Of a stretch of DNA of 64,000 bases, positions 2,783 through 62,334 are shown one piece after another. This stretch comes from Elusimicrobiota bacterium (GTDB taxonomy: Bacteria > Elusimicrobiota > Elusimicrobia > F11), in assembly GCA_044221725.1 (NCBI GenBank), contig JBGAON010000001.1, positions 96,001-160,000 on the forward strand, in the 5' to 3' direction. Below the pieces are notes generated by a model. It was not told the DNA's origin. It searched no databases and saw only the letters and a program-made list of their open reading frames with translations. The first letter of the stretch is position 1; every line of letters begins with the position of its first letter. Made by a program: the position numbers and the translations under genes.

Positions 2783-3256
2783 ATGAACGCCATCGACGCA
2801 AAAGTAGGTCAGAAGTACCTGTCAAAAAAAGGAACACCTGTCACGGTAGTCGGCCACAAGGGCGACAAAGTAACCCTAAAAATCAGCGGATCCGAAAATG
2901 AAATCGACGTCGTTAAAAACTACGAGTTGAAGCCCTATCGGGACGCGGAGGTCAACAAGGAGGCAAAGATTCTTATCCGCGCCAGTGGTGGCGGTCAGGG
3001 CAAAGGCGGTCGAAAGCCGAGCAAAGAATCGCTCTCCGCTACCATTGACCCCATGCTCTTCGCGGGCGGAAAGACCGTAAAGGAAATTGCGGAACTCGCG
3101 ATTAAAAACGCGCCCGATCTCGTGAAAGGAAAAGATGTCGAGGCCAACGTGCGCGCCCGCATGGTTTCTTTTTCCCGCAAAGGGTGGAAGATCGAGAAGG
3201 ACGATACGAAACACGTATGCGTTATCAAGCCGAAGGAGGTTGCCCATGCGAATTAA
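2783..3256 (+). CDS. Lys-rich hypothetical protein, possible N-terminal SH3/KOW-like and C-terminal winged-helix domains
   Basis: AGGAGG RBS; C-terminal GGKTVKEIAELA..VEANVRARM..GWKIEK resembles wHTH. Confidence 0.65.
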   Translation: MNAIDAKVGQKYLSKKGTPVTVVGHKGDKVTLKISGSENEIDVVKNYELKPYRDAEVNKEAKILIRASGGGQGKGGRKPSKESLSATIDPMLFAGGKTVKEIAELAIKNAPDLVKGKDVEANVRARMVSFSRKGWKIEKDDTKHVCVIKPKEVAHAN

Positions 3257-3557
3257 CCAAGGCGACAAGTTTTGGGTAGTGGTCGACGCCAAATCGACCA
3301 GCGAATTGAGCGACATCCTGTTTGAGACGACCATAGATGGGCTGGAGCGCCAATTCAAAGGAGGGTTGACCTCGGACGACAACGTCACCATCTTCGCAGA
3401 CCATAACGAGGCGGCGATGGAGGCGCACCGACGCATGACCGCCGTCAACGTGGCCGAGGCGATCAAGAACATGGCCTCGGCCGACAGCATGAAGAAGGCC
3501 AAAACAGTCGAATTCAAATCCGCCTCCGGCGCGGTGGTGTTTTCCGTGAAATTATGA
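3246..3557 (+). CDS. Hypothetical protein (start reassigned to MRINQG)
   Basis: AAGGAGG RBS before ATG 3246; ATGA overlap with recombinase. Confidence 0.65.
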   Translation: MRINQGDKFWVVVDAKSTSELSDILFETTIDGLERQFKGGLTSDDNVTIFADHNEAAMEAHRRMTAVNVAEAIKNMASADSMKKAKTVEFKSASGAVVFSVKL

Positions 3558-4444
3558 CGGTTAACGCGGCTCTCTTGGCCCGGTTTCTCACCCATCTCCG
3601 CGTGGAGCGCGGGTTGTCAAAATCTACGGAGATCACGTACCGCCATCAACTTCTCGCCTATCTAAACTTCCTCGACCAGAACCGTCAAAGCGTTGAGTCC
3701 GCGACGCACGATGACGTCATGGCGTTTCAAGAACAACGAAAGAACCTGGGGCTTAAATCCGCCTCCCTTTTCATCTCTGCGGTGACGATACGGCAGTTCC
3801 ACCGCTTCCTCAAAGGCCGGGGCCACGCGTCATCCGACCCGACAAGCGAATTCCGGCTGCCAAAATTCAAGCAGCGGATTCCGCAGCCCATCAACGCGAA
3901 CGATATGGAAAAATTGTTGGAGTCTGCTCCCAGTCAAAAGTTCACGGTCATTCGTAACCACGCCATGCTCGAACTTGCCTTCGGGACGGGCATGCGAGTT
4001 ACCGAACTGACTGGCCTCAATGTCAACCAAATCAATTTGACCGAAGGGTGGGTCCGAGTTTTGGGAAAGGGGTCCAAGGAGCGAATCATTCCGGTGGGCA
4101 CCAAAGCCATCGAAGCTTTGGCCATTTATCTTGAAGCCAGGAAGTCGCGATACCCCAATGAGGACGGGCCTTTGTTTGTTAATTCGAGGGGAAAAAGGCT
4201 AACACGGGCGGGATTCTGGTGGCTTTTGCGAGGGAAGGCCAACCAGAAAGGCATCAAGGCAAGAATCTCTCCACACCAACTGAGGCATAGCTATGCCACG
4301 GCCCTTTTGGAGGGCGGCGCCTCGTTGAGAACAATTCAGGTTTTAATGGGGCACGAGCGACTGGATACCCTGCAAAAATATACTCACGTGAGCGCGAAAC
4401 TTCTGAGAGAAACCTGCCGCAAAAGCCACCCACGATTCTCCTGA
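3554..4444 (+). CDS. XerC/XerD-like tyrosine recombinase
   Basis: N-terminal HLRVERGLS..T..Y; catalytic R (TGMRVTEL), K (GKGSKER), HQLRH, LMGH, Y (QKYTHV). Confidence 0.9.
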   Translation: MTVNAALLARFLTHLRVERGLSKSTEITYRHQLLAYLNFLDQNRQSVESATHDDVMAFQEQRKNLGLKSASLFISAVTIRQFHRFLKGRGHASSDPTSEFRLPKFKQRIPQPINANDMEKLLESAPSQKFTVIRNHAMLELAFGTGMRVTELTGLNVNQINLTEGWVRVLGKGSKERIIPVGTKAIEALAIYLEARKSRYPNEDGPLFVNSRGKRLTRAGFWWLLRGKANQKGIKARISPHQLRHSYATALLEGGASLRTIQVLMGHERLDTLQKYTHVSAKLLRETCRKSHPRFS

Positions 4445-4523: not shown

Positions 4524-5627
4524 ATGACGGTGAATCAAGTGGAAGAAAAAACACAGTTGGATTCTAGTTTAGTCCAATTGGCCCGGTTGGCGCTCAGTGG
4601 ACGGCGGCAAGATATTGAACTTTTTATCCGCCGACTCATCCATAACAATGGATTGTCCGTCGATGCCTCAAAAAAGCTGACGCGGCTTCTTCAAGACTCG
4701 CCTACCAAGAACTCTCCGCTTCGCAACGAGACGTTTCCCGCTCTTCCCGTGGATATGGATTCGCGGCTTCAACTCTTACGACAGGAATATCCTGCGGTGA
4801 TCGATCAAGAGCCGATTTGGGCTCCCAGTGTACGGAGCAACCTAGAACAGATCATTCAGGAACGCGAGCAAGAATCGAATTTGATCCGGGCCGGCATTCA
4901 GCCCAGCCGGTCTTTGCTTTTTACAGGAGAGCCGGGCGTTGGAAAATCTTTAGCGGCCCGCTGGCTCGCCAACAAACTCCAACTTCCTCTGTTGATTCTT
5001 GATTTGTCCGCTGTCATGAGCAGTTTTTTGGGGCGCACTGGGGCCAACGTGCGGAACGTGATCGACTACGCCAAGGGGAGCCGTGCAATTCTTCTCCTGG
5101 ATGAATTCGATGCGATTGCGAAACGGCGCGACGACGCCGTAGAGGTGGGCGAGTTAAAACGCCTTGTGACGGTTCTTCTCCAAGAGATAGATGACTGGCC
5201 ATCAACCGGAATTCTCATCGCGGCCACCAATCATTCCAACCTACTTGATCCCGCTGTCTGGCGGCGGTTTGATCTTCTCGTCGAGTTTCCCATGCCAACG
5301 GAAGAACAAGTAGGCGAAAAAATAAAGAATGTTTTTGGCGCTGACTCTGAATTGTCCCAGGAGTGGATTGATATTTTGCGCCTGCTTTTGGCGGGATCGT
5401 CATTCGCGGAAATAGAACGAGAGTTGCTCACCATTCGCCGTCGAGCAATTATTAGTCAATCGTCGCATCAAGACCTGATCACGGAATTTGTTAAAAGCAA
5501 AACACAACAACTCAGGAATAAGACCCGTGTTAATATCGCCCAACGCCTGATCGAGTTGGGCTACTCTCAAAGACGAGCTCATGAATGGACAGGCGTAAGC
5601 CGAGACACAATAAGAAAGACGATCTAG
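4524..5627 (+). CDS. ietA: AAA+ ATPase, IetA-like, with C-terminal HTH
   Basis: Walker A GEPGVGKS, Walker B LLLDEFD, AATNH..LDPAVWRRFD; directly upstream of an S8 protease. Confidence 0.8.
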   Translation: MTVNQVEEKTQLDSSLVQLARLALSGRRQDIELFIRRLIHNNGLSVDASKKLTRLLQDSPTKNSPLRNETFPALPVDMDSRLQLLRQEYPAVIDQEPIWAPSVRSNLEQIIQEREQESNLIRAGIQPSRSLLFTGEPGVGKSLAARWLANKLQLPLLILDLSAVMSSFLGRTGANVRNVIDYAKGSRAILLLDEFDAIAKRRDDAVEVGELKRLVTVLLQEIDDWPSTGILIAATNHSNLLDPAVWRRFDLLVEFPMPTEEQVGEKIKNVFGADSELSQEWIDILRLLLAGSSFAEIERELLTIRRRAIISQSSHQDLITEFVKSKTQQLRNKTRVNIAQRLIELGYSQRRAHEWTGVSRDTIRKTI

Positions 5628-7876
5628 CTTCAGCCCAATCTCCGGCTACCCGGGCCAATTACATCCTGGCTCATGGGGAACGGCTTACCAAACCGGTCAG
5701 TATTCCTCGCGGCGCTGGTGAGAAAGTTCATCCCTATTCCTTCGCCGAGGCCAAAGACCGCCTTCGCCCTCAGATAAAAAAAGTCGTCGAAACCGTTTTC
5801 GCTCTGCCAGCGGACACCTGCCCCAACGATGAAACCGTCATCGGTCTCACGCTTCATCCTTCTTACCTGGCCAAGTCTTATTTCCCAGTCAATCTTCTTC
5901 GCGCCTTAAACTTGCGAGTAGTAGGAAGTCAACGGAAGATGATTTCTCCTGAGAAAACGGTGGGCAAAAAAACGTCAGGAGAAGTTCCGACCGTTGAGTT
6001 ATTTGTGGCAGGACAGCGAAGTGCCATTCAGCGGTTAGCGGAACGGCAAGACAAATGGAATCCTCGATCCACGGAAGCTCAAGACCTGATCCGGATCGAG
6101 AGGATTCAACCCATCAAGCCGGAAGACAAATTTGTTCCTTTTGATTCCAAGGAGGAAGTACCGCTCCTTGAAATTGTTCTCCACGCTTCCAAGAACGCTG
6201 AATCGCGTTACATTGTGGAAGGTTTTTTCAAATTTCTCTCCGGCCTGGGGATCGAGGCCAAGTATTCTGAAAAGAAGCTTTTCGTTGGCGGCTTGTGCTT
6301 TATTCCGCTTCGAGCGCCTCAATCATTGATTCCAAAAATCATCTCCTATTCCTTCTTACGAGTTCTCCGAAAGATGCCGTCTCTGCGGAGCTTCCTTCCG
6401 TTGCTTCGCATGGCCACGAAGACCGAGCCTTTCCCTTTTGATTCTCCTGAGGGAGGCCCTATAAATCCGGATATCCACACAGTTGTTATGGACGGAGGAA
6501 TACCCAGCAATGCAAATCTGAGTCGTTGGGTTCACTACGAAAAGGCTCCTGGCGTAACCGAGGAGGATGAGGATGGACTCAAGCACGGCCTTACCGTCAC
6601 CTCGGCCGTGCTCTTTGGTCCGCTTCAGAAGGACGCTCCGGTTTCCTTTCCGTTCTCACGATTGGATCATTACTGCGTTCTCGGAAAAAACGACCAGGGA
6701 GATTTCATTTACGATGTTCTCGCTCGCGTGATTTCCGTCCTTGAATCCAAGCGGTATGAATTCGCCAACCTAAGCCTCGGACCACGTCTTCCTATCGAAG
6801 ACAACCATGTCGATCCGTGGACATCGGTGATTGACCAAGTGCTCTCGGATGGGAAAATTTTCTTGACAGTGGCCGTTGGCAACGATGGAGACAAAGACAG
6901 GCCCTCCGGCAACGCCCGCATTCAGATCCCTGCGGATTGTGTGAATGCCGTTTCGGTCGGCGCCGCCGATTCATTGTCGAGAATATGGCGGCGGGCTCCT
7001 TATAGTTCCATTGGGCCTGGACGAACACCTGGTTACTTCAAGCCGGATGTGGTTGCGTTTGGGGGGGCGGACGCGGAACCTTTTTGGGTCATCGATCCGC
7101 AGAATCCAGCGTCGACATTTCCAGCGGGAGGGACCAGCTACTCGTCGCCCGCCGCTTTGCGTATCGCTTTGGGCTTAAGATCTCAATACGGGGGCGACCT
7201 TAAACCGCTCGTACTTAAAGCCTTGCTTGTCCATCACAGCGACTCGCTCGGTCACGATAAGATCGAGGTTGGATGGGGAAGGATTCCGGCTTCACTCGAT
7301 GCTTATATGAAGTGTCCCCCGGGCACGATAAAAATTCTCTATCAAGGTGAACTCCCACCCAAAAAATATCTCCGGATCCCCGTGCCGCTGCCGAAGGAAA
7401 CCCTGAAAGGCAATGTGACAATCAAAGCCACTCTGTGTTACGCCACCGAAACCGATCCAGAGCATCCCTTCCATTACAGCCGGAGCGGTCTTGAAGTTAC
7501 TTTCCGGCCGCATTCAAAAGTTCGGTCCCGTCCGGAGCAAGAACAACCAAAAACCACGTCTTTTTTTAGGCCGGACGATCAATACATGACAGAAAGCGCG
7601 TTACGCCGGAGCGCTTTCAAATGGGAATCCACCTTGCATGGGCAGAAGAGAATGAGAGGAGCGAGTCTTGACGATCCCGTGTTCGATGTCCATTACATGG
7701 CGAGAACGGGGGGCAGGCCAGCGAAAGACCCCAAACCAATCGCGTATGCTTTCGTTTTAACGGTCGAAGCGCCCAATCACCCTGACCTCTATGACAACGT
7801 TGTCGTCAGGTATCGAACCCAACTGGAAGCGCTGCGACCTGTGGTTGAGATTCCCATCCAATCTCAGGGAATGTGA
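5585..7876 (+). CDS. ietS: S8 (subtilisin-like) serine protease, IetS-like
   Basis: Triad VMDGG / KHGLTV / GTSYSS, oxyanion AVGND, KPDVVAFGG; no signal peptide. Confidence 0.8.
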   Translation: MDRRKPRHNKKDDLASAQSPATRANYILAHGERLTKPVSIPRGAGEKVHPYSFAEAKDRLRPQIKKVVETVFALPADTCPNDETVIGLTLHPSYLAKSYFPVNLLRALNLRVVGSQRKMISPEKTVGKKTSGEVPTVELFVAGQRSAIQRLAERQDKWNPRSTEAQDLIRIERIQPIKPEDKFVPFDSKEEVPLLEIVLHASKNAESRYIVEGFFKFLSGLGIEAKYSEKKLFVGGLCFIPLRAPQSLIPKIISYSFLRVLRKMPSLRSFLPLLRMATKTEPFPFDSPEGGPINPDIHTVVMDGGIPSNANLSRWVHYEKAPGVTEEDEDGLKHGLTVTSAVLFGPLQKDAPVSFPFSRLDHYCVLGKNDQGDFIYDVLARVISVLESKRYEFANLSLGPRLPIEDNHVDPWTSVIDQVLSDGKIFLTVAVGNDGDKDRPSGNARIQIPADCVNAVSVGAADSLSRIWRRAPYSSIGPGRTPGYFKPDVVAFGGADAEPFWVIDPQNPASTFPAGGTSYSSPAALRIALGLRSQYGGDLKPLVLKALLVHHSDSLGHDKIEVGWGRIPASLDAYMKCPPGTIKILYQGELPPKKYLRIPVPLPKETLKGNVTIKATLCYATETDPEHPFHYSRSGLEVTFRPHSKVRSRPEQEQPKTTSFFRPDDQYMTESALRRSAFKWESTLHGQKRMRGASLDDPVFDVHYMARTGGRPAKDPKPIAYAFVLTVEAPNHPDLYDNVVVRYRTQLEALRPVVEIPIQSQGM

Positions 7877-27541: not shown

Positions 27542-29257
27542 TTATGAAGACATCTTCTCGACGTAGGTTTCTGACTCCTTGACCGGATAATTTGACACCA
27601 GCAACTCAAATTTATTCCGGTGTCCCAATTGATTCGCGCCCGTCCAAAGGGTTTTCACGCGGTAGGTTTTGAATCCTTTGAATAGGTTCTTTTTCTCCAG
27701 CTCGTAACTCAACAAAAACCGGCCTTTGATGGATTTGAGAACCGGTAACATATCCTCTTCCTTGAAAAACTTTGATCCGACTCCGCCCGTTTCTTTCGGC
27801 CAGTGAAGAGGATACGGCGGATCGAGATAGAAAAAGGCGTCCTTGGAATCGAATTCCTTTATCACGTCTTTCCAATCTTTGTTTATGAGTTTCACGCCGC
27901 GAAGCCGTTCTTTAATTTGCGGAAGCCGCTTCACCAGTTGGATCTCGTATCCCTCGCCTTTCTCTCCGGTTCGCATGCCTTCTATCCGGTCGGTGCGGCC
28001 CCAGTAATTGGCTTTGTTCAGGTAAGCGATCCGGTAAAACCGCTCGCGTGGGGACGATGGCTCGCGGTCGAACACTTTTTTAACGTGGGTACGGGAGATT
28101 GTCCAATACTGCTTCTCCAGCCATTTCTGATCCTCTTCATCCATATGCTTGATGAAGCGATACGCGAAAATGAGATCCGGGTTCACGTCGTTTAAGATTT
28201 CTTCGTTCGACCGTTTCTTATGGAAGAATACCTGGGCACCGCCACAAAAGCCTTCCACGAATGTCTTGTGTTCGGGAATCATGGGGACGAGTTTCTTGCA
28301 GAGGCGAAACTTTCCCCCAGGGCTTTTGAACGCACCTTGAATTTTCTCAACGCCATCATGCCCCTCCAAATGCGGAAAAAGAAGCGGGACGCCTTCTTCC
28401 ATACCTTCTGGTTTGGCGTCCAACTCCTTGTCGATGTAGAGGTGCTTTTTCTCGAGCGGATGTTTTGAAACAAGAAGCTCCGTCACCCACTCCTGATTGC
28501 CACCGGGCCCGCGCATTTGGTTGCGGCGCTTCACGCGATAAACGTTCATCCCTTTGAACGCGTTGGCTCGGTCACCGGTGTAGGACACGATCCAATCACC
28601 TCGAAGGGTTTTCAATTTCTTGATGAACTTCTGTTCTTCAAAACCGAAATCAAAAAGATTGAATGTGCCCGGGTACGGCGGGTCGATGTAGAAGAACGTG
28701 TCCTCCCCGTCATATTTCTTAAGCACCTCGGAATAATCCTTGTTGTGAACAACAACGTTTTTAATCCGCTGTTGGGAGCGGGTGATGTTGTTCTCGAAAT
28801 CAATGATCACGCCTGCGTTGGCCGGATTAAAGGAACCGCCCCGCATCTTCCCGTAGGAGGAGCGTGTCAAATAATAGGCCTTGTAGAACCGGTCCATCTC
28901 GGTGACCGGCTTCATCTTTTTCAACCGCTCGTGCGTTTCTTTGTTGATTTCCCAGTTCCGTTTGGCGAGAGCGGCGCGATCTTCCTTCGTGTGGTCGCGG
29001 ATAAACCGGTACATGAAGGCGATTTCGGAGTCGCGGTCGTTGATGATTTCTTGCGGTGACGGATCTTTGGCGAAAAGAACCGCCGCACCACCAGCAAACG
29101 GTTCAACGTAAGTTTTGTGATAAGGAATGTATGCGGCGATCTTGTGCGCGAGTGCACGCTTGCCGCCGTAGGAGCCGAAGGCTTGCCGAACTCCTTTTTC
29201 TAAATCTGATTCTCCGCTCACCGGCTGATCAGCCGGTGAAATTTCTGTTGGTTCCAT
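27542..29257 (-). CDS. Tandem two-domain Dam-family (D12 class) N6-adenine DNA methyltransferase
   Basis: Domain 1 YGGK/YVEPFAGG/IND/YIDPPY; domain 2 PGGK/FVEGFCGG/LND/YLDPPY. Confidence 0.9.
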   Translation of the reverse strand: MEPTEISPADQPVSGESDLEKGVRQAFGSYGGKRALAHKIAAYIPYHKTYVEPFAGGAAVLFAKDPSPQEIINDRDSEIAFMYRFIRDHTKEDRAALAKRNWEINKETHERLKKMKPVTEMDRFYKAYYLTRSSYGKMRGGSFNPANAGVIIDFENNITRSQQRIKNVVVHNKDYSEVLKKYDGEDTFFYIDPPYPGTFNLFDFGFEEQKFIKKLKTLRGDWIVSYTGDRANAFKGMNVYRVKRRNQMRGPGGNQEWVTELLVSKHPLEKKHLYIDKELDAKPEGMEEGVPLLFPHLEGHDGVEKIQGAFKSPGGKFRLCKKLVPMIPEHKTFVEGFCGGAQVFFHKKRSNEEILNDVNPDLIFAYRFIKHMDEEDQKWLEKQYWTISRTHVKKVFDREPSSPRERFYRIAYLNKANYWGRTDRIEGMRTGEKGEGYEIQLVKRLPQIKERLRGVKLINKDWKDVIKEFDSKDAFFYLDPPYPLHWPKETGGVGSKFFKEEDMLPVLKSIKGRFLLSYELEKKNLFKGFKTYRVKTLWTGANQLGHRNKFELLVSNYPVKESETYVEKMSS

Positions 29258-29261
29258 GTTC

Positions 29262-31370
29262 TTACACCTCGCTTATGAATGTGCACCGGCAATTGGGATG
29301 AATCGGCAGAAGCGTCCTTGCCTCATCCATCGCCAGCGTCTTGCCCAGTTTCTCACCGGGGATTGATTCCGACACCGCCCGGCATTCCGGGCAAGCGTCT
29401 GGCGACAAAAGAAAAACGACCTTCTCAATGCCCGCTTGATTGAGCGCGTCCAGATTGCCTTCGTTGTAGGCGCGGTTGGCCTCGGTTCGGGCGATTAGCT
29501 CCGCCGCCGATGACCGCGATACGCTTCGCGTATGCCCGGTCCGGATAACATTGCCTTGGGCGTCAATGACGGGTCGGACATTCACGGTGGCGAACGCATC
29601 CAACTGTGCCTCGACCCGCGATTGAAGCTGTTGAACGGACTCGTTGGCCGCGATCCCTTCGATGAGCGCTTGACGGAGAGATGCCTTGATCGATTCCGCT
29701 ACATGCCCCGCCAATGTAGAAGCGTTGTTTCGTAAAAGCTCTTCCACCTCGGAGCTAATGTCATCAATGTCTTTGAGCTTGTTCCGTTGCGCCGCCAATT
29801 TCAGCGCTTTCACAGCCGCTTCAAGCGAATGCTTCTCAATAACTCGGGCGAGCCCTTCTTCATCAATCAGCTCCAAGATAACTTCGAGGTCGTCCAACCG
29901 TTTCAGCGCCTCGGGAAATTTAAACTGGTGGAGAGTGATGTCGTGATAGCGAATCACGACCGGCTCGAACGGGAGACTGCCTTTCTCAACTTTGGGTACG
30001 ATCCGTTCCCGAACAATGGTTGGAATTCGTCGTGAGACGGCGTTCTTGATCTGGCGGAACACGTTCTCAAGAGAACGCACGAACCGGTTTTCGATGTCGA
30101 CCACCGCTCGCGTCGCCTGAACAATTGTCTGCGCTGGTGTCAGCGTGCCCTTTTGAATCTCACCCTCGCCCCGAAGAGCCTTTTCCATCTCCGGCATACG
30201 GGGGGCTACAATGCGCCGAACTTCCTCCGGCGAGAACACGCCGCCTTGAAGATAGATGTTGAAGATCTCGGCCTGGTCTTTGTCATCGATGGATCGCTTG
30301 TTGAATTGGAACGCCCAGTCCTGAATCCCGAAGCCCTGTCGGATAATATGCTTGGTGATCTTCTCGGCCAACCGCATTTGAAAAGGAAGAATAGTCTCCT
30401 CATAGAAGGTCTGTGTTTGGTGCTCACCCGTTCCGGCCCCAATGTTTCCCGTCTCGATGATCGACACCTTGCTGGGCGGCACGCCGTAGACCGCGAGGAT
30501 TTCATTTCGCGTGAACTCTCGCAGCGCCAAAAACTCCATGTCCTTTTGGTTGACGCCGATCTGCTTGTATTCGATCTCGCCTTCCAACACCAAATCGGAA
30601 TGGGCGGAGTCCGGGTTCTTGGCGCGAGCCTGCAAATACTCACGGTTCCGCTCCACTTGTTCCGCGGTCGAGTTTTTCATGATGAACGCGCCGCGAATCT
30701 TTCCGCCATTGATAAAGAATGCGCGGTTGTAGATCTGGGCAAATTTGTCCACGGTGACGGGAAGAATGAGGGAGGCGAGAGGCGACAAGCCGTAAAGGGT
30801 CGCGCCCTTGGTGCCAAGCTTAAAGTGAATCACCTCATCCGGCCCGAAATCCACGCGGCCACTTTTCGCGGCCAGGGAATATTTCGGCATCTGGACATAT
30901 CCTTGAATGGCCCCGTGCTCATCGGCCTTGACCCGAACCGTTGTGACGTCCAGATTCCACAGCTCCTTCGGTTTACCGTCCGCGCCCCGAACCACCTCAA
31001 GGAAGGCGTTCCCGAAAACATATTCATCCCGCGTGATGTCATCAAGGATTTCCAGGAGCGTATCGTTGGGGTTGCAGTTGGAGAAAAACTCCGAAAGGAG
31101 TTCGGCGTCTTTGGGGTCGGCGTTTGGCTTGGTCGGGACGAGCGAATAGCCGCGCGCCGTGACCGCCTTGCAGATGACGCCCACCACGGCCCGTACCCAG
31201 GAGGTCTGCTCGTACATCTGGTTGTAGATTTCGAGATCGATCTCCGGCAGAATCCCTTCCGAGGAACTGAGTCCCAAAACATGGGACACCACCTGCCTTG
31301 AGGATTTTTGAATCTCCTCTTTGATCACGTCAGGAAAGAAAAACTTAACGAATCGCTCTTTGATCTTCAT
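29262..31370 (-). CDS. Portal protein fused to MuF (Mu gpF-like) minor head domain
   Basis: FGNAFLEV, EVIHFK..YGLSPL, ILAVYGVPP; C-terminal IARTE..AYNEG, CPEC, PIHPNCRC; ATGA overlap with terL. Confidence 0.9.
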   Translation of the reverse strand: MKIKERFVKFFFPDVIKEEIQKSSRQVVSHVLGLSSSEGILPEIDLEIYNQMYEQTSWVRAVVGVICKAVTARGYSLVPTKPNADPKDAELLSEFFSNCNPNDTLLEILDDITRDEYVFGNAFLEVVRGADGKPKELWNLDVTTVRVKADEHGAIQGYVQMPKYSLAAKSGRVDFGPDEVIHFKLGTKGATLYGLSPLASLILPVTVDKFAQIYNRAFFINGGKIRGAFIMKNSTAEQVERNREYLQARAKNPDSAHSDLVLEGEIEYKQIGVNQKDMEFLALREFTRNEILAVYGVPPSKVSIIETGNIGAGTGEHQTQTFYEETILPFQMRLAEKITKHIIRQGFGIQDWAFQFNKRSIDDKDQAEIFNIYLQGGVFSPEEVRRIVAPRMPEMEKALRGEGEIQKGTLTPAQTIVQATRAVVDIENRFVRSLENVFRQIKNAVSRRIPTIVRERIVPKVEKGSLPFEPVVIRYHDITLHQFKFPEALKRLDDLEVILELIDEEGLARVIEKHSLEAAVKALKLAAQRNKLKDIDDISSEVEELLRNNASTLAGHVAESIKASLRQALIEGIAANESVQQLQSRVEAQLDAFATVNVRPVIDAQGNVIRTGHTRSVSRSSAAELIARTEANRAYNEGNLDALNQAGIEKVVFLLSPDACPECRAVSESIPGEKLGKTLAMDEARTLLPIHPNCRCTFISEV

Positions 31371-32716
31371 GCCAGGTCCTCCACGAAATTGATGCACGGC
31401 TCAATCTTCTTTTCTTGAAACGGGCGCAGAGCCAAATACAGCGCGTCCAAGAGATCGTCTTTGCCGGTTGGAAAATGAATCAGTTGCTCTTCAAGATTTT
31501 CGAGGCGCTCGGGCATCCGTAAGGTCCCGTTTTCAAAATAAGGCGTGAGGCCCCGGATCCGTTCGTGCTTGTCACCTTTGGTGTGGTGGGGCTCGATGGG
31601 GATATTTTTTGTTTCCGGGTCCGATCGAAGGGATTGAACGAGAGAATTCTGATATCCGTTTGTCTCGATGATGACGCGGGTCGGTTTATGAACATGATAG
31701 ATCCGCTCAATCGCTTTCTTCTGTTCCAGAAAACTCAATTGGTCGTGATAGGCGTCCAGCACATAAACATCCCGCGCCTTGCTCACGCCCACCACGCAGA
31801 TTGCGAACCGCGACCCTTCCTCTCTTTTCGTGATGGCCGGATCCACGCCCGCATAAACCGTCAGATCATCAGGCAGCTGCTTGTATCTCGCGGACTCAAT
31901 CCACGCGAGTTTGAAATCCGCCTTTTCGCCGCCCGCCGGATCATTTCGATACAAGCAGTTGTAAGCCAATGTCCCCATTTGAGCCCGGATCAGATTCAGC
32001 TTCTGCTCGTTGAATTTTTCGGGAAAAAGAATGTGGGGGTTCCCCTTCTCATCGATCCAATCCGCCGCCAGGTTTATGACCTTCCAATGGGAAAAGCCGG
32101 GATCCGATTTGATAAAGCCCGCGAGATCCTCCGAGTGCCAACGCGTCATGATCACAATGATCTGCCCGCCGTCGTCCAAGCGGGGCAGAAGATCCCGCTG
32201 AAACCAACCCATCACCTTCGCCCGCTGGTGATAGGTCTGCGTGTTCCGGTTGCTGCAGGGATCATCCACGATGATGAGATTGGGGTGCATCGACACCACG
32301 GTTCCCAAAACCGAGCCCACAGCGATGCTCGGCTCTTTTCGGATCTCGGTGCGGGGAATTTGGATGCGCTCCTCGGTCCAGGTATTGGCTTGGAGATCCC
32401 AATTCCCGTATTTTTCGCGGAACCGCTGGTTCTCCGTCAGGTGCGCTTTGATCTCGCGTAAAAAACCTTTCGACTGATCCAGTATTTCGTTCACGAGTAA
32501 AATTCTCATGTTCGGATCTTCCATGAGCCTGAAGAGCGGATAGGTGATGGTGCAGGCGGAGGTTTTGAAATGACCGACCGGAGCGCACATGAGGATGTAC
32601 TTCTCTCGCAAGAGGATGTCGAACCAGGACAAGTGAAGCTCGGTGAATTGCTTGTAGCCCAGCACGTCGCGGCCAAAGAAAAAGAGTTCCTGGAGGCGTT
32701 CCGAGTGGGATTTCAT
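31367..32716 (-). CDS. terL: Terminase large subunit
   Basis: APVGHFKT Walker A-like, IIVDDP, MTRWHSEDL, GVDPA, IETNGYQ, DDLLDAL; start reassigned to MKSHSE. Confidence 0.9.
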   Translation of the reverse strand: MKSHSERLQELFFFGRDVLGYKQFTELHLSWFDILLREKYILMCAPVGHFKTSACTITYPLFRLMEDPNMRILLVNEILDQSKGFLREIKAHLTENQRFREKYGNWDLQANTWTEERIQIPRTEIRKEPSIAVGSVLGTVVSMHPNLIIVDDPCSNRNTQTYHQRAKVMGWFQRDLLPRLDDGGQIIVIMTRWHSEDLAGFIKSDPGFSHWKVINLAADWIDEKGNPHILFPEKFNEQKLNLIRAQMGTLAYNCLYRNDPAGGEKADFKLAWIESARYKQLPDDLTVYAGVDPAITKREEGSRFAICVVGVSKARDVYVLDAYHDQLSFLEQKKAIERIYHVHKPTRVIIETNGYQNSLVQSLRSDPETKNIPIEPHHTKGDKHERIRGLTPYFENGTLRMPERLENLEEQLIHFPTGKDDLLDALYLALRPFQEKKIEPCINFVEDLA

Positions 32717-32728
32717 CTCCCGCTCCCT

Positions 32729-32835
32729 GTACGAAAAAAAGATGGTTTCGTACAAAAAATGGAAAGCCCTCTTTTCCCTGGTGTGTTTCGTACATAAAAA
32801 AATGGAATGTTTCCCTTGGGCGCGTGCGAAACACA
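32729..32835. repeat. Four alternating-orientation TTTCGTAC-like sites between terS and terL
   Basis: GTACGAAA 32729-32736, TTTCGTAC 32746-32753 and 32786-32793, GTGCGAAA 32824-32831. Confidence 0.65.
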
Positions 32836-32923
32836 ACCAAAGGGGAGGCATACGCGATAATCGAAGGAAATTTTACGCTCGGCGACCGCCGCCGAAAAAA
32901 CGCCGGTCTTCCGTCGAGGAACC

Positions 32924-32952
32924 ACTCGACATAATGGCGCATTATGTCGAGC
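32924..32952. other. dif-like palindromic recombination-site candidate
   Basis: ACTCGACATAA-TGGCGCA-TTATGTCGAGC; 12-bp perfect inverted repeat with CATAA/TTATG inner arms. Confidence 0.6.
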
Positions 32953-32959
32953 AGGGACG

Positions 32960-33535
32960 CTAACCGTTTGCACTGTTTCCCTCCGCCTGCGCCGAGTCAG
33001 GAGCTGGCGCGTCGGCAAGGATTTCAATCGCCGGTATTGGTTCGACGGTGGTGACGGCCTGGCTCTCTTTCATTGGGGACTCCGTCCCGTGGGACTTCGG
33101 CCCGTTTGTTTCCTTTCTTTCCAGAAACTTTTGAACCGTTATTTTCACTTCCTCCGACACCTCCATAACTCTATCGGGAACCGACGTTTTTGCGGTGAGC
33201 GAGCCGAACTGGGCTTGCCGGTCGAAGAGTTCGCTGATGATCTGAACCAGATCCCGAGCCGACGCCTCCGACAATTTCTTTTTGAGAATTTTAAGCGAGG
33301 CGAAAATGATGTCCCACACTTCTCTTGTCAATCGACCTTGAATCCGGACGGCCACCGGGTTATGGCCTGGCTCATCGGGCTGGAACTTGTTCGCATTATC
33401 CAGCCAATATTTGACGGTCGACTTTTGAAGCTGGAGGCTTTTTGCAATATCGCTCAGCTTCATGCCGCCTTCGAATTTTGCGATGGCGGACTGGATCATC
33501 GCCGTCGAGTGGCGTTGGGGGCCTTTCCGTCTCAT
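32960..33535 (-). CDS. Putative terminase small subunit (N-terminal HTH)
   Basis: GMKLSDIAKSLQLQKSTVKYW HTH, helical middle, upstream of terL. Confidence 0.6.
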   Translation of the reverse strand: MRRKGPQRHSTAMIQSAIAKFEGGMKLSDIAKSLQLQKSTVKYWLDNANKFQPDEPGHNPVAVRIQGRLTREVWDIIFASLKILKKKLSEASARDLVQIISELFDRQAQFGSLTAKTSVPDRVMEVSEEVKITVQKFLERKETNGPKSHGTESPMKESQAVTTVEPIPAIEILADAPAPDSAQAEGNSANG

Positions 33536-35404: not shown

Positions 35405-35496
35405 TGCAGGGATGTCAGGCATTTTCCATATAGCCCGTCATACGCGCGTGCGCGCGCGCGTAACGCCGATAATGGAGAATCCCTGACATCCCTGCA
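35405..35496. repeat. Inverted repeat around an alternating purine-pyrimidine tract; candidate replication origin
   Basis: TGCAGGGATGTCAGG (35405-35419)/CCTGACATCCCTGCA (35482-35496) flanking CATACGCGCGTGCGCGCGCGCGTA. Confidence 0.7.
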
Positions 35497-39413: not shown

Positions 39414-39896
39414 TTAGAATTTTATTTCGGACTGATCCGGTGACGGTGAGGCCGGCGACGCCGGGGCTTTCGCCGGACCATCTGCTGTCACCGCTTGCGT
39501 TACGGGATCGCCATCCACGTAGAACTTGGAAATCCGGTTTCTTTTCTTTTTGTCGTATTCCTCGATCACCACGTGCGCCTTGCAATATTTGTGCACGTAC
39601 TCGTCGGTGTCGAAGTCGAGGCTTCCGTCGTAAGGAAGCCCCAAGGCATGATTGACCCTGAGCCAAATCCCGTGACCGGGTTCGCCTTTCGGAATAAAGG
39701 TCACGGTGTGAAAACACCGGCCCACGGTTTTACCCTCAAGCGTCATGATGGCGAAAACGAGATCAACCTTCTGACGTTTGGTTTCATTCGTGAGCCCATC
39801 TTCTTTTTCAATCACTTCGACGATGTAATCGTCCTCGGGAGCCAGGGTAAACCCGGCGCTTTCTTGGGATGCGTCCGCTTGAATTTGAACTCTCAT
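39414..39896 (-). CDS. Putative ssDNA-binding protein (DUF669-like)
   Basis: [19 protein letters not shown], Pro/Ala tail ending in F; follows Sak4-like gene. Confidence 0.65.
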
Positions 39897-40687
39897 TTTT
39901 TTGATCCTCCTTGGGGTTTTGTTGACGTTTTTGTTTCGGCGGGAAGCGGCGGTTTTACGGGAGCGGGTTCCGATTTAAAGACGGCCTCGATGGCTGACCA
40001 CTGATTGGCTTTTGGCAACTCGATGACCCTGTCCTCGAGTTCGGGAATCCGGCTTCCGAAAGCGCCCAGCGGCCCGCCGCTGAAACTGACGAAATACTTC
40101 GTCGTGCCGGCCACCTGTTTCTTGTAACAGTGGCCGATCGCATCAGCGGCCGCCGCAATGAAACTAGCTCCCTTGCCCATGACGTTGATGCCCTGCGGCA
40201 CCACGACGACGCCGTTGGCATCGAGCTTGGGCTCTTTCGTATGGGCCAAGAGAACGATGAGCTTCCCGCTCGCTTTGAAATAGCCGACGAGCGCTTCGAT
40301 CCGCTTTCGGAGCTCCGCAAAGAGGCTCCAAGAATCAACGCCTTGCTTGCGCTCAAGGATATTCTCGAGTCCAGCGGCTCGCGCAACCTCGTCTTCCAGC
40401 ATCGACGCCACGGAATCAAGCGTGTCGATGACGATGCACCGAACGTCTGCGGCCGCAACCGCCGCTTTGAGAACGCTCCTGAAATCAGGGAGCGTTGCAA
40501 CTTCCGCTATGCGGCCGCTGACTCTGTCCGCTCCGCCTTTTTCCATCTCAATAATGATGGAGTCTTTGATGCTCGAACCTAATGTGGTCTTACCGACCTT
40601 CTGCATGCCCACAAAGATGAACAGCCCCTCTGTCGGCATGCCCGTCTTGCGCTTGTCGCGCCATTGCGGCAATGTCGTGTCCTCCAT
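39893..40687 (-). CDS. Sak4-like AAA_24 ATPase (single-strand annealing)
   Basis: [21 protein letters not shown]. Confidence 0.75.
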
Positions 40688-41258
40688 TGTTTCCTCCTAT
40701 GATGTGTTTCCATCGCTCTCTCTTAATGATCCTCGCTATGGGGGTTGGCCCCATCCCGTACATCTGCGCGAGTTTGAGATAGGTGTAATGTCCCGTGGCG
40801 TAGAGCGCCCGTATTTCGACAACCTGTTTTTCATTCAATTTGGCGCAGTAATGATCGGACCCGTGGGATAAATTTTCGGGATGGCGGCGCGAGGGACTCA
40901 TGTCTCCTCGAAGAAGCCGCTCGGGATGAAGCCTGGATCCGTTCCGGTCGCCTTTGGCTTGCCTGTTCTTAAAGTCTCGGTCGCGGATGTTGTCGATCTC
41001 CGTTCCAATCCAGAGATGGTCGGGGCGGACGCAGGGCGGGTTGTCGCATTTGTGCAACACGCACATGCCCGGCGGAATCGGACCCCGCTCAAATGTCCAC
41101 GACGCGCGGTGGGCACGCCAATTTCTTCCGTCCATCTTGAACTTGCCGTAACCCCGCTTGCTCCTCGCGCGGAGCCATTCCCAACATCCGCTTGTCCGGT
41201 TGACGTTTCGCCAAAACCGAATCTCGTGGGCAATCCGTGGAAAAACGCCTTTTGGCAT
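40590..41258 (-). CDS. HNH homing-type endonuclease with C-terminal HTH
   Basis: CWEW, GYG, AHRASW, VLHKCDNPPCVRPDHL..N. Confidence 0.85.
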   Translation of the reverse strand: MPKGVFPRIAHEIRFWRNVNRTSGCWEWLRARSKRGYGKFKMDGRNWRAHRASWTFERGPIPPGMCVLHKCDNPPCVRPDHLWIGTEIDNIRDRDFKNRQAKGDRNGSRLHPERLLRGDMSPSRRHPENLSHGSDHYCAKLNEKQVVEIRALYATGHYTYLKLAQMYGMGPTPIARIIKRERWKHIIGGNNGGHDIAAMARQAQDGHADRGAVHLCGHAEGR

Positions 41259-41264
41259 AGCGAC

Positions 41265-42053
41265 CTAAAACGCCTCGTATTGCGGCTTCTCAAGCGCGTC
41301 TTTAAGCGTCTTCGCCGCCAGGAAGGCCCGGAAACTCAAGGCCAGATCAGCCACAGTCTTCACTTCGAATTCATAAGGCGGTTTTTTCCCGAGCCGGAGA
41401 ATGAGCGCTTGGTCACAGGTGATTCCGTAGGTTTCCGAGAGGGCCTGGGAATATGCCGCCACTTGCAAGGCAAATTCCGGCCAGCATCCCGACGAGGTTT
41501 TCAGATCAATCAAGACGTATTTGCCGTTTCGAAATCCCAGCGCGTCCAGAGATCCGGCGTATTGATAGACCAGGCTCGCCACCTTGGTGTCGCCCAGCAC
41601 AATTTCGATGCCGGAATGTTTCCACCAGGCAAGAAACGCCTCGACGGGTGCTTTGATCTCGTCCGGGATCGCGTCGTGCTTCTGGCCTTTCACGATTTGA
41701 TCAACGGTGGAGTGAACTCGGGTTCCAAGATCGGCGGCGGCGTCTTTGATTTGATCCGGCTTCTTTCTCGCGCTGGCGATGACGCTTTGGATCCACGACT
41801 TGTCCAGCGTGATTTGCGCGGAGTCTTGGCCGTTCAGCTGTTTAAGAAGCTCTCCTTCGACGGAAACCACCGCTTCTCTTGCGGCCCAGTTAACAAGCGC
41901 GGGTTTTGCAATGACGCCCAAATAACCGGTGACGCTTTCAAGTCGGTGCACGACTCCTTCTTTCTCAGCTCGATAAATGTGTTTCCGGCCTTCGATGGTC
42001 ATCGTGATGGGGAATATCGGCGTCAACATGGGCGGACGAGAGGAGAGACGCAT
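41265..42053 (-). CDS. PD-(D/E)XK exonuclease
   Basis: SVT..L..IAKPAL..W, GTRVH, YAGSLD, IDLKTS, LQVAAY. Confidence 0.8.
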   Translation of the reverse strand: MRLSSRPPMLTPIFPITMTIEGRKHIYRAEKEGVVHRLESVTGYLGVIAKPALVNWAAREAVVSVEGELLKQLNGQDSAQITLDKSWIQSVIASARKKPDQIKDAAADLGTRVHSTVDQIVKGQKHDAIPDEIKAPVEAFLAWWKHSGIEIVLGDTKVASLVYQYAGSLDALGFRNGKYVLIDLKTSSGCWPEFALQVAAYSQALSETYGITCDQALILRLGKKPPYEFEVKTVADLALSFRAFLAAKTLKDALEKPQYEAF

Positions 42054-42368: not shown

Positions 42369-42376
42369 AAGGGGTC

Positions 42377-42416
42377 CTACTTATCCTCTATCCCTTTCGC
42401 GGAAAAATTTTCCGGT
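42377..42416 (-). promoter_or_regulatory. 40-bp promoter-like repeat, copy 1 (faces replication operon)
   Basis: ACCGGAAAATTTTTCCGCGAAAGGGATAGAGGATAAGTAG, 35/40 identical to 44437-44476. Confidence 0.7.
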
Positions 42417-43007
42417 TGGCTGGGGGCAGACGGAAAATAATCTTTCAATCTCTCATCTTCCGCGAGGATCCGGCCCATGCGATGGAATTCAGCCTGCAGG
42501 GTGGTTCGGGGCTTTTTTATGAGGCGGCTGATTTCGATGGGCGAATAGCCCGCAATAATTAAGGAACCGATCTCGCGCTGTTCCTTGTTAAGCCGGCGGA
42601 ACATACGTTCGGCGTCATAAAGGAAGTCGGTGTCGGAGAAGGGGCAGGTTGGGCGTCCGCCTAAGCGGCTCGATTCCGAGATGCTTTCGGAGAGTGGCTG
42701 GCGATCTCCATCCTGGTTTTGGATCTCCTGATCCAATGACATGGTTACACACCCGCGACCGCGTTTCAGTGCATCGCGGAGTCTCATCAATTGGAGGATG
42801 GCTTTGTCGAGGATGAAACTTAGGAACTTCTCCTGAGAAGCGCTCGATGCGTGGTCGGGCCGATAGAGCCCGCGCCTTTCAACGATGAAAATTAAAAGTT
42901 GTTGTTCCATGTCTTGGCCATCCTCCTTTGTCAGCCGGAATTTTCGTTTCGCCGCCTCACTCTTTTTTTTTCGCCATCCTCAGTTCCATCTCCGTCAGTT
43001 CTTTCAC
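42377..43007 (-). CDS. ECF/sigma70-like factor, interrupted by a frameshift in an A9 run (intact part 42377-42910)
   Basis: Region-2-like DMEQQLL..Y.P..FLSFI, SLD, region-4 HTH GYSPIEISRLIKKPRTTL; AGGAGG+GTG at 43007 joins in frame only if the run is A8. Confidence 0.7.
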
Positions 43008-44386: not shown

Positions 44387-44436
44387 ACCCGCTTCAACGA
44401 CATTTCCTCTCCCTGCTCTGCTGGTAGTTCCTTCCG

Positions 44437-44476
44437 ACCGGAAAATTTTTCCACGAAATGGATAGATCATAAGTAA
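44437..44476 (+). promoter_or_regulatory. 40-bp promoter-like repeat, copy 2 (faces small ORF and integrase)
   Basis: ACCGGAAAATTTTTCCACGAAATGGATAGATCATAAGTAA. Confidence 0.7.
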
Positions 44477-44496
44477 GAGCCTTCGCGCTCCTACTT

Positions 44497-44732: not shown

Positions 44733-46361
44733 ATGAAAAGCCCTGTTGAACAAAAACCCACCACCTTGTTGTGCGCGGTTTACACGCGTAAATCCACCGA
44801 CGAGAATCTGAATACGGGTTTTACCTCGCTTGATTCGCAGCGCGAGTACTGTCAGGCATTTGTTAAAAGTCGGGAAGGCGAAGGTTGGCGCGTCCACGCC
44901 GAGGAATACAACGATCCGGGATTCTCAGGCGGCAATATGAACCGCCCAGGTTTAAGAAAACTTCTCGCCGATGCTCGCGCCAGAAAATTTCAGGTCGTAG
45001 TTTGCTACAAGTACGATCGGCTAAGTCGCAACACAAAAGATTTTCTTCAAATCCTCGAAGTTTTTGACCGAAGCGGCGTCGCCTTTGTTTCGGTCACCCA
45101 ACCCATCGATACCACCTCTTCCGTCGGAAGATTGATGAGAAGCATCCTTATGGATTTTTCGCAATTCGAGCGCGAGATGATTGCGGAGCGCACCAGAGAC
45201 AAACTTCACGCCATGGCTCAAAAAGGAAAACGCACGGGCGGCTGGCCCGTCATCGGCTACAACATCGATAGCGAAAACCGGAAGTTATCGGTCAACGCCG
45301 AAGAAGGGCTGTGTGTGCGGGAGATGTTTGAAGCCTATCTTCGGACGTTGTCCTTAAGCCAAGCGGCTCAATATTTGAATGAGAAGGGCTATCGGATGAA
45401 GGAATGGATCACCCACAGCAAGAAGCGTCGGGGAGGGCAAAAATTCAACAAGGCCAGCCTGTGGTATCTTCTGCAGAATCCGCTTTATGTCGGGAAGATA
45501 ACGCACCGTCGGCAGGTTCTGCCCGGCGAGCATGAGGCCATTATTTCGCAGGAGATTTTTGACGCCGCGCAAAAGGCTCTTCGCGCCAACGGCAATGGAA
45601 CGAAGAACAAACACGTCCAAGAACGGAAGCGCGATTTTCTTTTGCGCGGACTGATGGAATGCGCCACCTGCAAGACCTCGATGACGCCGAGCTCGGCATT
45701 ACCGAGGAGCAGGCGGGGCGTATCCTATGAGCGCTTCTACTATTACAAATGCCTGTCGGTCGTGAAGATGAATAAATCGGCCTGCAAGATCAGACATGTG
45801 TCGGCGAAATCAATAGAGGAATATGTCGTCAAACGATTGGAATTGCTGAGCGAAAATCAGGAGATTGTGGAACAGATCGTGGCTGAGGCCCAGTCGACAA
45901 CCAGTCAGGAGCTTCCGATTAAGCGGGATGAAAGAAAACGGCTGGCCGCGGAACTGGGAAAACTCGAACTGCAAGCCAAGAGCCTCGTCATGGTCCTCGC
46001 TGATGAAGGGCCAACTTCGTCTATGCGATCTTATGTGAGAGACCAATTGGCCGAGATCGAGGCAAAGAAACAGGAGAGCGGCCCGCGGGTTGCCTCACTT
46101 GATCTTGAAATCGAACGGTTGGAAAAGCGCCAGATCGACGCTAACGTCGTGCGTCGGAATCTTGGCAACTTCCTCAAACTCTTCGCAAAAATGTCCGGCG
46201 ACGAGCGGCAGGAAATGATGGGGCTGCTGGTGGGTCGTGTGATCTACGACGGAGAAAAGTCTCGGGTTCGCATCGCCCTCCGCCCCCTGCCTGAAGCCTG
46301 GGGCGACCTAGATTACCTGGAAGGCGTTTTCTACGACCGTCAAACATCTCTGCCGGACTAG
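44733..46361 (+). CDS. Large serine recombinase (integrase)
   Basis: YTRKST catalytic Ser, YDRLSR, FERE.I.ERT, NPLYVG, HEAIIS, Zn ribbon CATC..YYKC..C, coiled coil. Confidence 0.95.
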   Translation: MKSPVEQKPTTLLCAVYTRKSTDENLNTGFTSLDSQREYCQAFVKSREGEGWRVHAEEYNDPGFSGGNMNRPGLRKLLADARARKFQVVVCYKYDRLSRNTKDFLQILEVFDRSGVAFVSVTQPIDTTSSVGRLMRSILMDFSQFEREMIAERTRDKLHAMAQKGKRTGGWPVIGYNIDSENRKLSVNAEEGLCVREMFEAYLRTLSLSQAAQYLNEKGYRMKEWITHSKKRRGGQKFNKASLWYLLQNPLYVGKITHRRQVLPGEHEAIISQEIFDAAQKALRANGNGTKNKHVQERKRDFLLRGLMECATCKTSMTPSSALPRSRRGVSYERFYYYKCLSVVKMNKSACKIRHVSAKSIEEYVVKRLELLSENQEIVEQIVAEAQSTTSQELPIKRDERKRLAAELGKLELQAKSLVMVLADEGPTSSMRSYVRDQLAEIEAKKQESGPRVASLDLEIERLEKRQIDANVVRRNLGNFLKLFAKMSGDERQEMMGLLVGRVIYDGEKSRVRIALRPLPEAWGDLDYLEGVFYDRQTSLPD

Positions 46362-46420
46362 GATTCGAACCTAGACGAGCAGATTCAGAGTCTGCCATCC
46401 TACCATTAGATGATCCGGCA
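46350..46420 (-). tRNA. tRNA-Gln(CTG), CCA not encoded
   Basis: Acceptor TGCCGGA/TCCGGCA, anticodon arm GCAGA-CTCTGAA-TCTGC, T arm CTAGG-TTCGAAT-CCTAG. Confidence 0.95.
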
Positions 46421-46476
46421 AAAGTGGGACGGGTATGATTATAAATGATCGTGATATACTCTGACACCGAAATCCC

Positions 46477-47273: not shown

Positions 47274-47353
47274 GTCATCCTGGGAAGTCGTTAGCCAGGA
47301 TCCATGTTAACCGTTGGCAAAGTGGGCCCTGGATAGAGACATTCCAGGGCGAC
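47274..47353. repeat. REP-like palindromic element copy 1
   Basis: GTCATCCTGG..GCCAGGATCCA..TGGGCCCTGGATAGAGACATTCCAGGGCGAC. Confidence 0.85.
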
Positions 47354-47356
47354 GGC

Positions 47357-49563: not shown

Positions 49564-49643
49564 GTCATCCCGGCACGTCTTTGGCCAGGATCCAATTTTA
49601 CCTCAGTCAAAGTGGACCCTGGATAGAGACATTCCAGGATGAC
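49564..49643. repeat. REP-like palindromic element copy 2
   Basis: Same 80-bp layout, ends CCTGGATAGAGACATTCCAGGATGAC. Confidence 0.85.
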
Positions 49644-49651
49644 GACGTTTT

Positions 49652-51962: not shown

Positions 51963-51992
51963 GTCGCCTGGATAGAGACATTCCAGGATGAC
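51963..51992. repeat. REP-like element, half copy 3
   Basis: GTCGCCTGGATAGAGACATTCCAGGATGAC. Confidence 0.8.
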
Positions 51993-51997
51993 GACAA

Positions 51998-61979: not shown

Positions 61980-62233
61980 TGCCGGATGTTGATTTATCGC
62001 AGCAGATCCCGCCGAACGCACGTTGGCTTAAGATCCGTTACGAAATGAAACCGCTCAAGGAAGGGGCCAATCTTATTGCTAGGATTTGGTCGGGCAAGCT
62101 GGACGATGCTGTTGTGATCAGCGGCGCAAGCGGCGACGTGTTTGTGCGTCTCGATGCACCGCAAAAAGTATCGTACCAACGGCCCGTAAACATCGATTTG
62201 AAATTAAAAGTTGTCGCGTACAAGGTCGTTTAA
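61979..62233 (+). CDS. Small hypothetical protein
   Basis: 84-aa ORF coupled to ppcA stop. Confidence 0.55.
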   Translation: MPDVDLSQQIPPNARWLKIRYEMKPLKEGANLIARIWSGKLDDAVVISGASGDVFVRLDAPQKVSYQRPVNIDLKLKVVAYKVV

Positions 62234-62236
62234 GTC

Positions 62237-62317
62237 GTCGTCCTGGCCTGCTTTCAGCCAGGATCCAATTTAACTGAAGATTAAAATGGGCCCTGGATAG
62301 AAACGTTCCAGGGCGAC
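62237..62317. repeat. REP-like palindromic element copy 4
   Basis: GTCGTCCTGG..GCCAGGATCCA..TGGGCCCTGGATAGAAACGTTCCAGGGCGAC. Confidence 0.85.
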
Positions 62318-62334
62318 GAGATCAGGAGGATGTG

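Follow-up and report, generated by a model that had tools for sequence, protein, structure and literature searches.

Phage P1 uses loxP, a site of 13-8-13 layout near pac, to circularize its redundant DNA. It is a headful packager that encodes the recombinase Cre (available text of PMC8026635). The cellular recombinase XerD normally requires XerC and FtsK (available text of PMC5357621). According to the accessible parts of the literature, Xer-like genes are common in plasmid prophages, and gp50 of Tyrovirus is accompanied by an adjacent perfect repeat of 11-6-11 layout (PMC9703825). Small satellites of the PICMI type are described, in the available text of 10.1101/2023.07.18.549517, as filling the helper capsid with headful concatemers. 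Here we describe a palindrome that lies between terminase genes in a 44-kb prophage of an Elusimicrobiota bacterium, within a 64,000-nt stretch of DNA (assembly GCA_044221725.1, contig JBGAON010000001.1, positions 96,001 to 160,000) that we refer to as the window. We put at about 0.7 the probability that this palindrome serves as the core site for recombination by the XerD-derived enzyme that the element itself encodes, and that it is situated within a packaging region predicted to be bound by the small terminase TerS. The features on which this reading depends are the following:

32924–32952, no strand assigned: core site, an asymmetric 7-bp spacer flanked by inverted 11-bp arms, both of XerD type (from sequence and conservation)
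3554–4444, plus strand: element-encoded XerD-derived tyrosine recombinase with intact catalytic residues (from sequence, tree and structure match)
32960–33535, minus strand: small terminase candidate (terS) with an N-terminal helix-turn-helix (HTH), assigned by position
31367–32716, minus strand: large terminase (terL), probable start at 32716 and not at 32851 (from family match and position)

A conserved palindrome behind terS

The palindrome comprises a left arm (32924–32934), a spacer (32935–32941) and a right arm (32942–32952), its arms are symmetric at 10 of 11 positions, and it is separated by 7 nt from the stop codon of the terS-like reading frame; its sequence is exactly as quoted in a preliminary description of the window. 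Contigs from two runs, which belong to other samples and other studies, span it with 0 differences, so it is not an assembly artefact. The pattern CATAA-N6-8-TTATG has a single match in the window and was present in 2 of 100 shuffles. The palindrome is a single-copy sequence in the 2.8-Mb genome, with no second copy at up to 7 mismatches. Because 12-bp perfect repeats also arise when the window is resampled by a Markov model (in 4 of 20 resamples), such a repeat is by itself weak evidence, and the case rests on conservation.

The preliminary description had proposed a survey for sites of this type near terminase genes and for their co-occurrence with xer, and the survey bore it out. The site was found behind terS in 40 of 41 distinct prophages and satellites (those with TerL identity above 40%), the remaining one having a run of N at that spot; 38 were recognized by pattern, with a background of 39 matches in 2000 random windows, and L017 and L064/L138 by eye. 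An intact recombinase gene is present on the same contig as the site in 22 elements (20 paired and 2 viral), usually 5–46 kb away. One further element has the 3′ part of the gene at a contig edge, another has a broken remnant, and the remaining contigs end too soon. Viral contigs gave no match in a single-protein TerL scan but did so in an alignment-based search: the site is present in 20 of 20 viral loci with TerL at 44% or more and in 0 of 12 with TerL at 23–36%, many of these loci being duplicates of genome loci.

Scanning 393 genomes with the pattern returned 27 matches, 26 of them at a terS–terL junction, as compared with 2 in the control. With a loose pattern, the control matches were as many as the off-target ones, and only profile-confirmed matches were used. 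The profile search yielded 59 distinct contexts and 55 cores, including two mis-picked rows. The 53 correctly picked cores have either the 11-7-11 (46 cores) or the 11-6-11 layout (7 cores). Both arms keep the inner TTATGT and an outer G, and the spacer begins with T, ends with A and has a free center. In the 46 seven-bp cores, the inner arm bases carry 1.4–2 bits and spacer positions 4–5 about 0.15 bits, and spacer positions 3 and 5 are symmetric in only 7. By their conservation the arms resemble XerD arms, and inverted conserved arms of 11–13 bp around a free, asymmetric center of 6–8 bp are the hallmarks of a tyrosine recombinase core site. The named relatives are Elusimicrobiota in 14 of 16 loci. 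The genome of the host (G000) contains a second element of about 11 kb (on contig C2) that has its own Xer, terS and terL; the corresponding position is occupied by a palindrome of different sequence, and no portal or capsid match was found in this second element.

Several other matches were set aside. Two exact viral matches to the arms of the window (L011 and L012) have a 6-bp non-T..A center and no terminase match and are considered unrelated, and the pattern matches in G255:C419 and G082:C7 were treated as chance.

Two unrelated viral contigs also have symmetric 11-6/7-11 sites upstream of Xer-like genes, at distances of about 70 and 430 bp (L240:6717 and L266:9547); these sites are two of 5 symmetric matches in 1.15 Mb, and modules of site and Xer may be more widespread. 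Genome G002 has six elements with near-identical cores, three of them in direct orientation on one contig, so the lysogen must keep the enzyme silent or under topological restriction.

As RNA, the palindrome in the window folds into a stem with a 12-bp perfect inverted repeat and a 3-nt loop, and symmetric double changes do exist (for example, in L024, L038 and L156), as expected if the palindrome were a terminator, a processing signal or a translational signal in the terS–terL message. However, among 104 arm mismatches (two mis-picked rows included), 16 would give a G-U pair on the coding strand and 21 on the opposite strand, and 67 would give none, which is the chance level and argues for selection on a double-stranded site rather than on an RNA stem. 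The primary sequence itself is conserved, no terminator was called at the site, no Rfam match was found, and the palindrome has neither the U-tract of an intrinsic terminator nor the G-U-biased covariation of a structured RNA. A role as an RNA hairpin, which the preliminary description had named among the outcomes that would overturn its proposal, is therefore extremely improbable.

The element-encoded recombinase

The product of the open reading frame at 3554–4444 has the complete R-K-H-R-H-Y set of catalytic residues, as expected from the preliminary description, which had recognized an intact Xer-like enzyme in addition to a serine integrase; the latter is the large serine recombinase encoded at 44733–46361. 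The recombinases of these elements form a single clade adjoining host XerD (support 99/99), with catalytic residues intact throughout, and the closest solved structure is that of XerD. The window enzyme scores 283.6 bits against the XerD family TIGR02225, below the cut-off of 329.6 that host XerD passes with 334.9 bits, and 263 bits against the XerC family (cut-off 335.15). It also falls below the XerA cut-off and far below that for XerS. The site is accompanied by a linked, catalytically intact cognate enzyme, the linkage being comparative and subject to the exceptions given below.

The same protein, or another dimer, could in principle use the palindrome as an operator that controls terL and the late genes or gates packaging, with no strand exchange. 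The position at the head of the late genes would suit such a function, as would the presence of the adjacent AACGG motif upstream of the xer operon and the replacement of the HxxR histidine in the XerD-like gene of L138. Nevertheless, the catalytic residues are intact clade-wide, the 29-bp 11-7-11 layout with its free center looks like that of a recombinase site, and the site is kept in elements that lack downstream late genes. We consider an operator quite unlikely.

Arms co-vary with the recombinase

Two groups of satellites have changed arm types, TTGAA/TTCAA with a 6-bp spacer and CCTAA/TTAGG with a 7-bp spacer, and each of these corresponds to one recombinase clade (6 of 6 and 3 of 3, respectively, support 100). 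The recombinases with changed arms are altered in the helix that aligns with TRQTFW of XerD, which presumably reads the arm. The TTGAA group is rejected as a single TerL clade (approximately unbiased test, p=2e-8) but is a single TerS clade. Across 136 pairs from 17 elements (the 20 paired elements minus 3 whose TerS or TerL is incomplete), the similarity of the arms correlates with identity of Xer at rho of 0.72, of TerS at 0.28 and of TerL at 0.33; the partial correlations are 0.68, 0.08 and −0.06, respectively. The common arm type is found with TerS proteins that are only 17–28% alike in their first 60 residues.

Another option is a pdif- or cer-like site for host XerC/XerD, or for a host–phage heteromer, with the flanking block in an accessory role. 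The common arm and the host dif candidate (C5:383283, beside xerC) both contain TTATGT, and the cer and psi sites are known, from the available text of PMC5357621, to have centers of 6–8 bp and about 180 bp of accessory DNA. Against this, both arms are XerD-like, the satellite arms diverge from the host arm, the spacer is unlike that of host dif, and integration takes place elsewhere, through integrases that the elements themselves encode. In addition, two hosts, G000 and G365, each harbor two arm types with their own enzymes. Dependence on the host recombinases is therefore improbable.

Elements that keep or lack both site and enzyme

In L398 and its relative L417, the entire block around the palindrome is kept and an intact recombinase of the clade ends directly behind the last box, with no terS or terL in the stretch examined. 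L448 is a satellite with Xer, primase, the block and an integrase but no terminase; although its enzyme is a sister to the TTGAA clade, its helix residue and its arms are those of the common type. Similarly, G036:C47 has the site, in decayed form, and Xer without a terminase. The converse is seen in a complete 7-kb satellite (L490) and its 91% copy (L489; two genomes), which have terS and all the boxes and lack both the palindrome and Xer; L491 is similar, except that it is cut by the contig end. A divergent XerD-like gene of L138 is located directly behind the site, between the boxes and terL. The earlier suggestion of a symmetric site for a single Xer-like enzyme is thus strengthened by co-occurrence, co-variation, joint retention without terminase and joint absence in the presence of terS.

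At the position of the palindrome, L490/L489 and L491 have a tandem GCTAC(C)GGTC-like motif. The block occurs in L449 (G350:C35) as a tandem pair of decayed copies, followed by a serine integrase at the contig end.

The block around the palindrome

The palindrome is embedded in a conserved cis block of about 330 bp, in which a motif inside terS is followed by the AACRGYGCAA motif, the palindrome, three further motifs and T-tract boxes that reach terL. This setting, with TerS-type boxes on either side, had escaped the preliminary description. The components are:

33040–33064, minus strand: upstream conserved motif and one further TerS-type box, within the terS coding region (from conservation)
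32968–32977, minus strand: AACRGYGCAA motif, a candidate accessory site located beyond the terS-side arm at a distance of about 15 bp
32848–32918, minus strand: block motifs CTCGACGG (32911–32918), GCGTAAAA (32871–32878) and CGCGTATGC (32848–32856) (from conservation)
32729–32831, no strand assigned: four T-tract-anchored boxes at 32824–31, 32786–93, 32746–53 and 32729–36 (from comparison)

The AACRGYGCAA motif is kept as DNA whatever the reading frame of terS, and CTCGACGG, GCGTAAAA and CGCGTATGC are retained also in palindrome-less satellites. The sequence of the T-tract boxes varies with the TerS type, and the four boxes are predicted TerS binding sites. The block surrounding the palindrome is a putative packaging signal. 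The terS product matches no Pfam or NCBIfam family and is assigned by its position and N-terminal HTH only.

TerL has no relative of solved structure by sequence, and its nearest annotated relatives are distant (22–33% identity). Because these include LP041, which is reported to be circularly permuted (available text of PMC6033974), and because the portal carries an SPP1 gp7-like domain, headful packaging appears likelier than a cos mechanism.

The main rival explanation is that the palindrome is a cosN-like nick site for the terminase, its 6–7 nt spacer (or a longer core) forming the cohesive overhang, while Xer does other work. This explanation stays alive because TerS-type boxes stand on both sides of the palindrome, a layout that fits a cos site. 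The inner AAT..ATT is almost invariant, the portal scores at the HK97 cut-off, and retention in terminase-less satellites would also suit a cis packaging signal. However, the arms track Xer and not TerL or TerS, satellites that have terS and the full set of boxes lack the palindrome, and the spacer length differs between sister TerLs (L100 and L058). The kinship with LP041 and the gp7-like domain also speak against cos, as does, more weakly, the finding that scans with the right half of the pattern retrieved the left arm as well in 22 of 22 true matches (mostly in cellular DNA). Altogether, a cos site appears unlikely.

Proposed role of the site

It is highly probable, judging from the comparisons above, that the element's recombinase binds and recombines the palindrome. 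A single enzyme would occupy both XerD-like arms, as Cre does on loxP, and recombination would take place between two sites in direct repeat, the asymmetric center of the spacer setting the direction. If the first packaging cut is made on the terS side, the site would be present at both ends of the phage DNA; in satellites packaged as concatemers, it would be present once per unit. If the cut is made on the other side, the task would instead be resolution of multimers during replication. We find it reasonably likely that the products are unit circles, formed after injection from terminally redundant phage DNA or from satellite DNA packaged as concatemers, or else from multimers that arise in replication, and that the separate integrase then inserts them. 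Incoming DNA would have to supply its own enzyme, which would account for the retention of xer in satellites without terminase, and also in the satellite loci examined for the phage exonuclease and annealing genes, which have none of them. The AACGG motif and orfB, a gene of the operon that encodes the recombinase, could be accessory parts of the system, an assignment that we regard as tentative.

A number of observations weigh against the recombination-site interpretation. The argument for headful packaging depends on the low TerL identities given above, and TerS-type boxes on both sides of the palindrome are what would be expected around a cut site. The phage may not need site-specific circularization because it has exonuclease and annealing genes of its own, and no joint at the palindrome was seen in contigs of 4 runs (assembled contigs only). 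The 136 pairs are not independent, the correlations depend largely on the two satellite clades with changed arms, and both of these are also single clades in TerS. The joint loss of site and enzyme is represented by one complete lineage (L490/L489) and one incomplete contig (L491). Among elements that have the site, L156 combines a near-perfect copy with only about 30 codons of an L138-type gene (on a 17-kb fragment), G036:C65 has a broken remnant of Xer, L116 has no Xer within 12 kb, and L488 and L449 stop at contig edges. The block was not found in seven genomes with a recombinase of the clade (G019, G327, G328, G005, G006, G225 and G323), in all of which the contig is short or ends close to the gene. 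Finally, the recombination and the binding that we propose, like the mode of packaging, are deduced from sequence comparison.

A possible evolutionary scenario, which we put forward with considerable reserve, starts with the conversion of a host XerD copy into a self-sufficient Cre-like enzyme by integrating phages of Elusimicrobiota, which placed the site of that enzyme inside their packaging signal. The TerS boxes, the AACGG motif and orfB would tie recombination to packaged DNA without FtsK. Satellites would then have evolved orthogonal pairs of enzyme and site (the three arm types), with which they could unpack concatemers while avoiding recombination with the helper.

If the palindrome is indeed a recombination site, the 'extra' Xer-like genes of integrating phages gain a function and a target, and there is a site-specific path from packaged linear DNA to circles outside P1. 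As a natural XerD-only system, the 55 site variants and their matched enzymes would constitute a test set for Xer specificity and activation, and the enzymes matched to the three arm types are candidates for orthogonal recombinases. Satellites are seen here to keep the recombinase after loss of the terminase.

Other features of the prophage and its host

The prophage extends from about position 2300 to a tRNA-Gln gene (46349–46421, minus strand) and is bounded by an orfA-orfB-orfC-xer operon on the left and the serine integrase on the right. Its other genes and motifs of relevance are:

2484–2515, plus strand: two tandem copies of the AACGGNGCAAC motif with a 21-bp period, upstream of orfA-orfB-orfC-xer (from sequence)
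2783–3256, plus strand: orfB, an SH3/KOW-like and winged-helix protein, usually before the recombinase gene, a candidate accessory or autoregulatory factor (from comparison and a structural model)
39893–42053, minus strand: AAA_24 and exonuclease genes, a homologous-recombination route for the phage (from family matches)
44733–46361, plus strand: large serine integrase at the right prophage end, overlapping the 3′ end of the tRNA-Gln gene (from sequence)

The serine recombinase is the integration enzyme of the prophage. CATCT is common to both prophage ends by eye (46345–46361 and 2282–2290) and may be the att core; as the integrase gene ends within the 3′ end of the tRNA gene, its C-terminus would change on excision. 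The AACGG motif next to the palindrome recurs twice before the xer operon in elements from the genus of the host, and the tandem AACGGNGCAAC form is limited to these elements. On the basis of its modeled winged helix, OrfB is a candidate binder of the AACGG motif. Its predicted structure gives generic SH3/KOW and winged-helix matches only (best Z 6.8), and Pfam reports a weak winged-helix match in 11 of 23 members. An FtsK-gamma-like activator role, which was also considered for OrfB, may apply but finds no support among the 50 structural matches listed, which do not include FtsK gamma. The AAA_24 protein we take to resemble Sak4.

Genes for XerC and XerD are also present in the host itself, with a dif candidate on a contig other than that of the prophage. 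The dif candidate (G000:C5:383283–383310; L003) lies about 60 bp upstream of xerC at a place where the GC skew is ambiguous; a host-dif pattern scan of 5 genomes gave no more matches than the control. A further tyrosine recombinase is encoded at G000:C3:2150–3151 (L005), and its N-terminus looks, by eye, like that of an integron integrase.

Elsewhere in the window, 48-bp inverted repeats (42372–42419 and 44434–44481, 85% complementary and 2 kb apart) surround repressor/cro-like genes and are possibly operators or the ends of an invertible segment. A long imperfect hairpin with 44-bp arms between primase and RusA-like genes (35405–35496) is a possible origin or processing site. An adenine methyltransferase gene (27542–29257) lies between the portal and prohead protease genes, and the cargo behind xer consists of an AAA ATPase and an S8 peptidase (4524–7876), presumably akin to known defense or toxin-antitoxin pairs. 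An intergenic REP-like repeat of about 80 bp (47274–47354, 49564–49644, 51967–51995 and 62232–62318) has dozens of copies across all five contigs.

Comparison with known systems

In a literature search that covered mainly freely readable papers, neither this family nor its layout turned up. Xer-like genes of phages were known before, as was one 11-6-11 repeat beside such a gene; in the accessible parts of those reports, the plasmid-prophage Xer genes and Tyrovirus gp50 are interpreted, without experiment, in terms of dimer resolution or attP, and none of the phage Xer sites is placed in the packaging region of an integrating phage. An attP of the IMEX type was rejected for the present site, which is internal and has a spacer unlike that of the host dif candidate, the element ends being at tRNA or other loci.

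In common with XerCD/dif and cer/psi (as far as described in the available text of PMC5357621), the locus has 11-bp arms with an inner TTATGT, a center of 6–8 bp and conserved flanks. Unlike those systems, it has two XerD-type arms for one enzyme, and its center is 7 bp as opposed to 6 bp in dif. Chromosomal XerCD/dif was rejected on the grounds of the XerD-like character of both arms, the 7-bp center and the location of the host dif candidate elsewhere. One enzyme for both arms is also the rule, according to the accessible literature, in XerS/difSL, XerH/difH and XerA, which differ in being chromosomal and mostly adjoining their sites.

In contrast to PICMI, the satellites described here keep Xer and the site, and many of them carry terS and terL; in the available PICMI text the word recombinase does not occur. 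P1 Cre/loxP shares with this element a single phage-encoded tyrosine recombinase, symmetric arms and an asymmetric spacer. It differs in arm type and spacer length, which are dif-like 11 bp and 6–7 bp here, and in its enzyme, which here is derived from XerD and not from the Cre family and is usually encoded far from its site. Moreover, the prophage is not a plasmid but is integrated at tRNA-Gln by a separate integrase, and its satellite relatives have site and enzyme pairs of their own. By analogy, the element most likely works like P1 Cre/loxP without being a member of that system.
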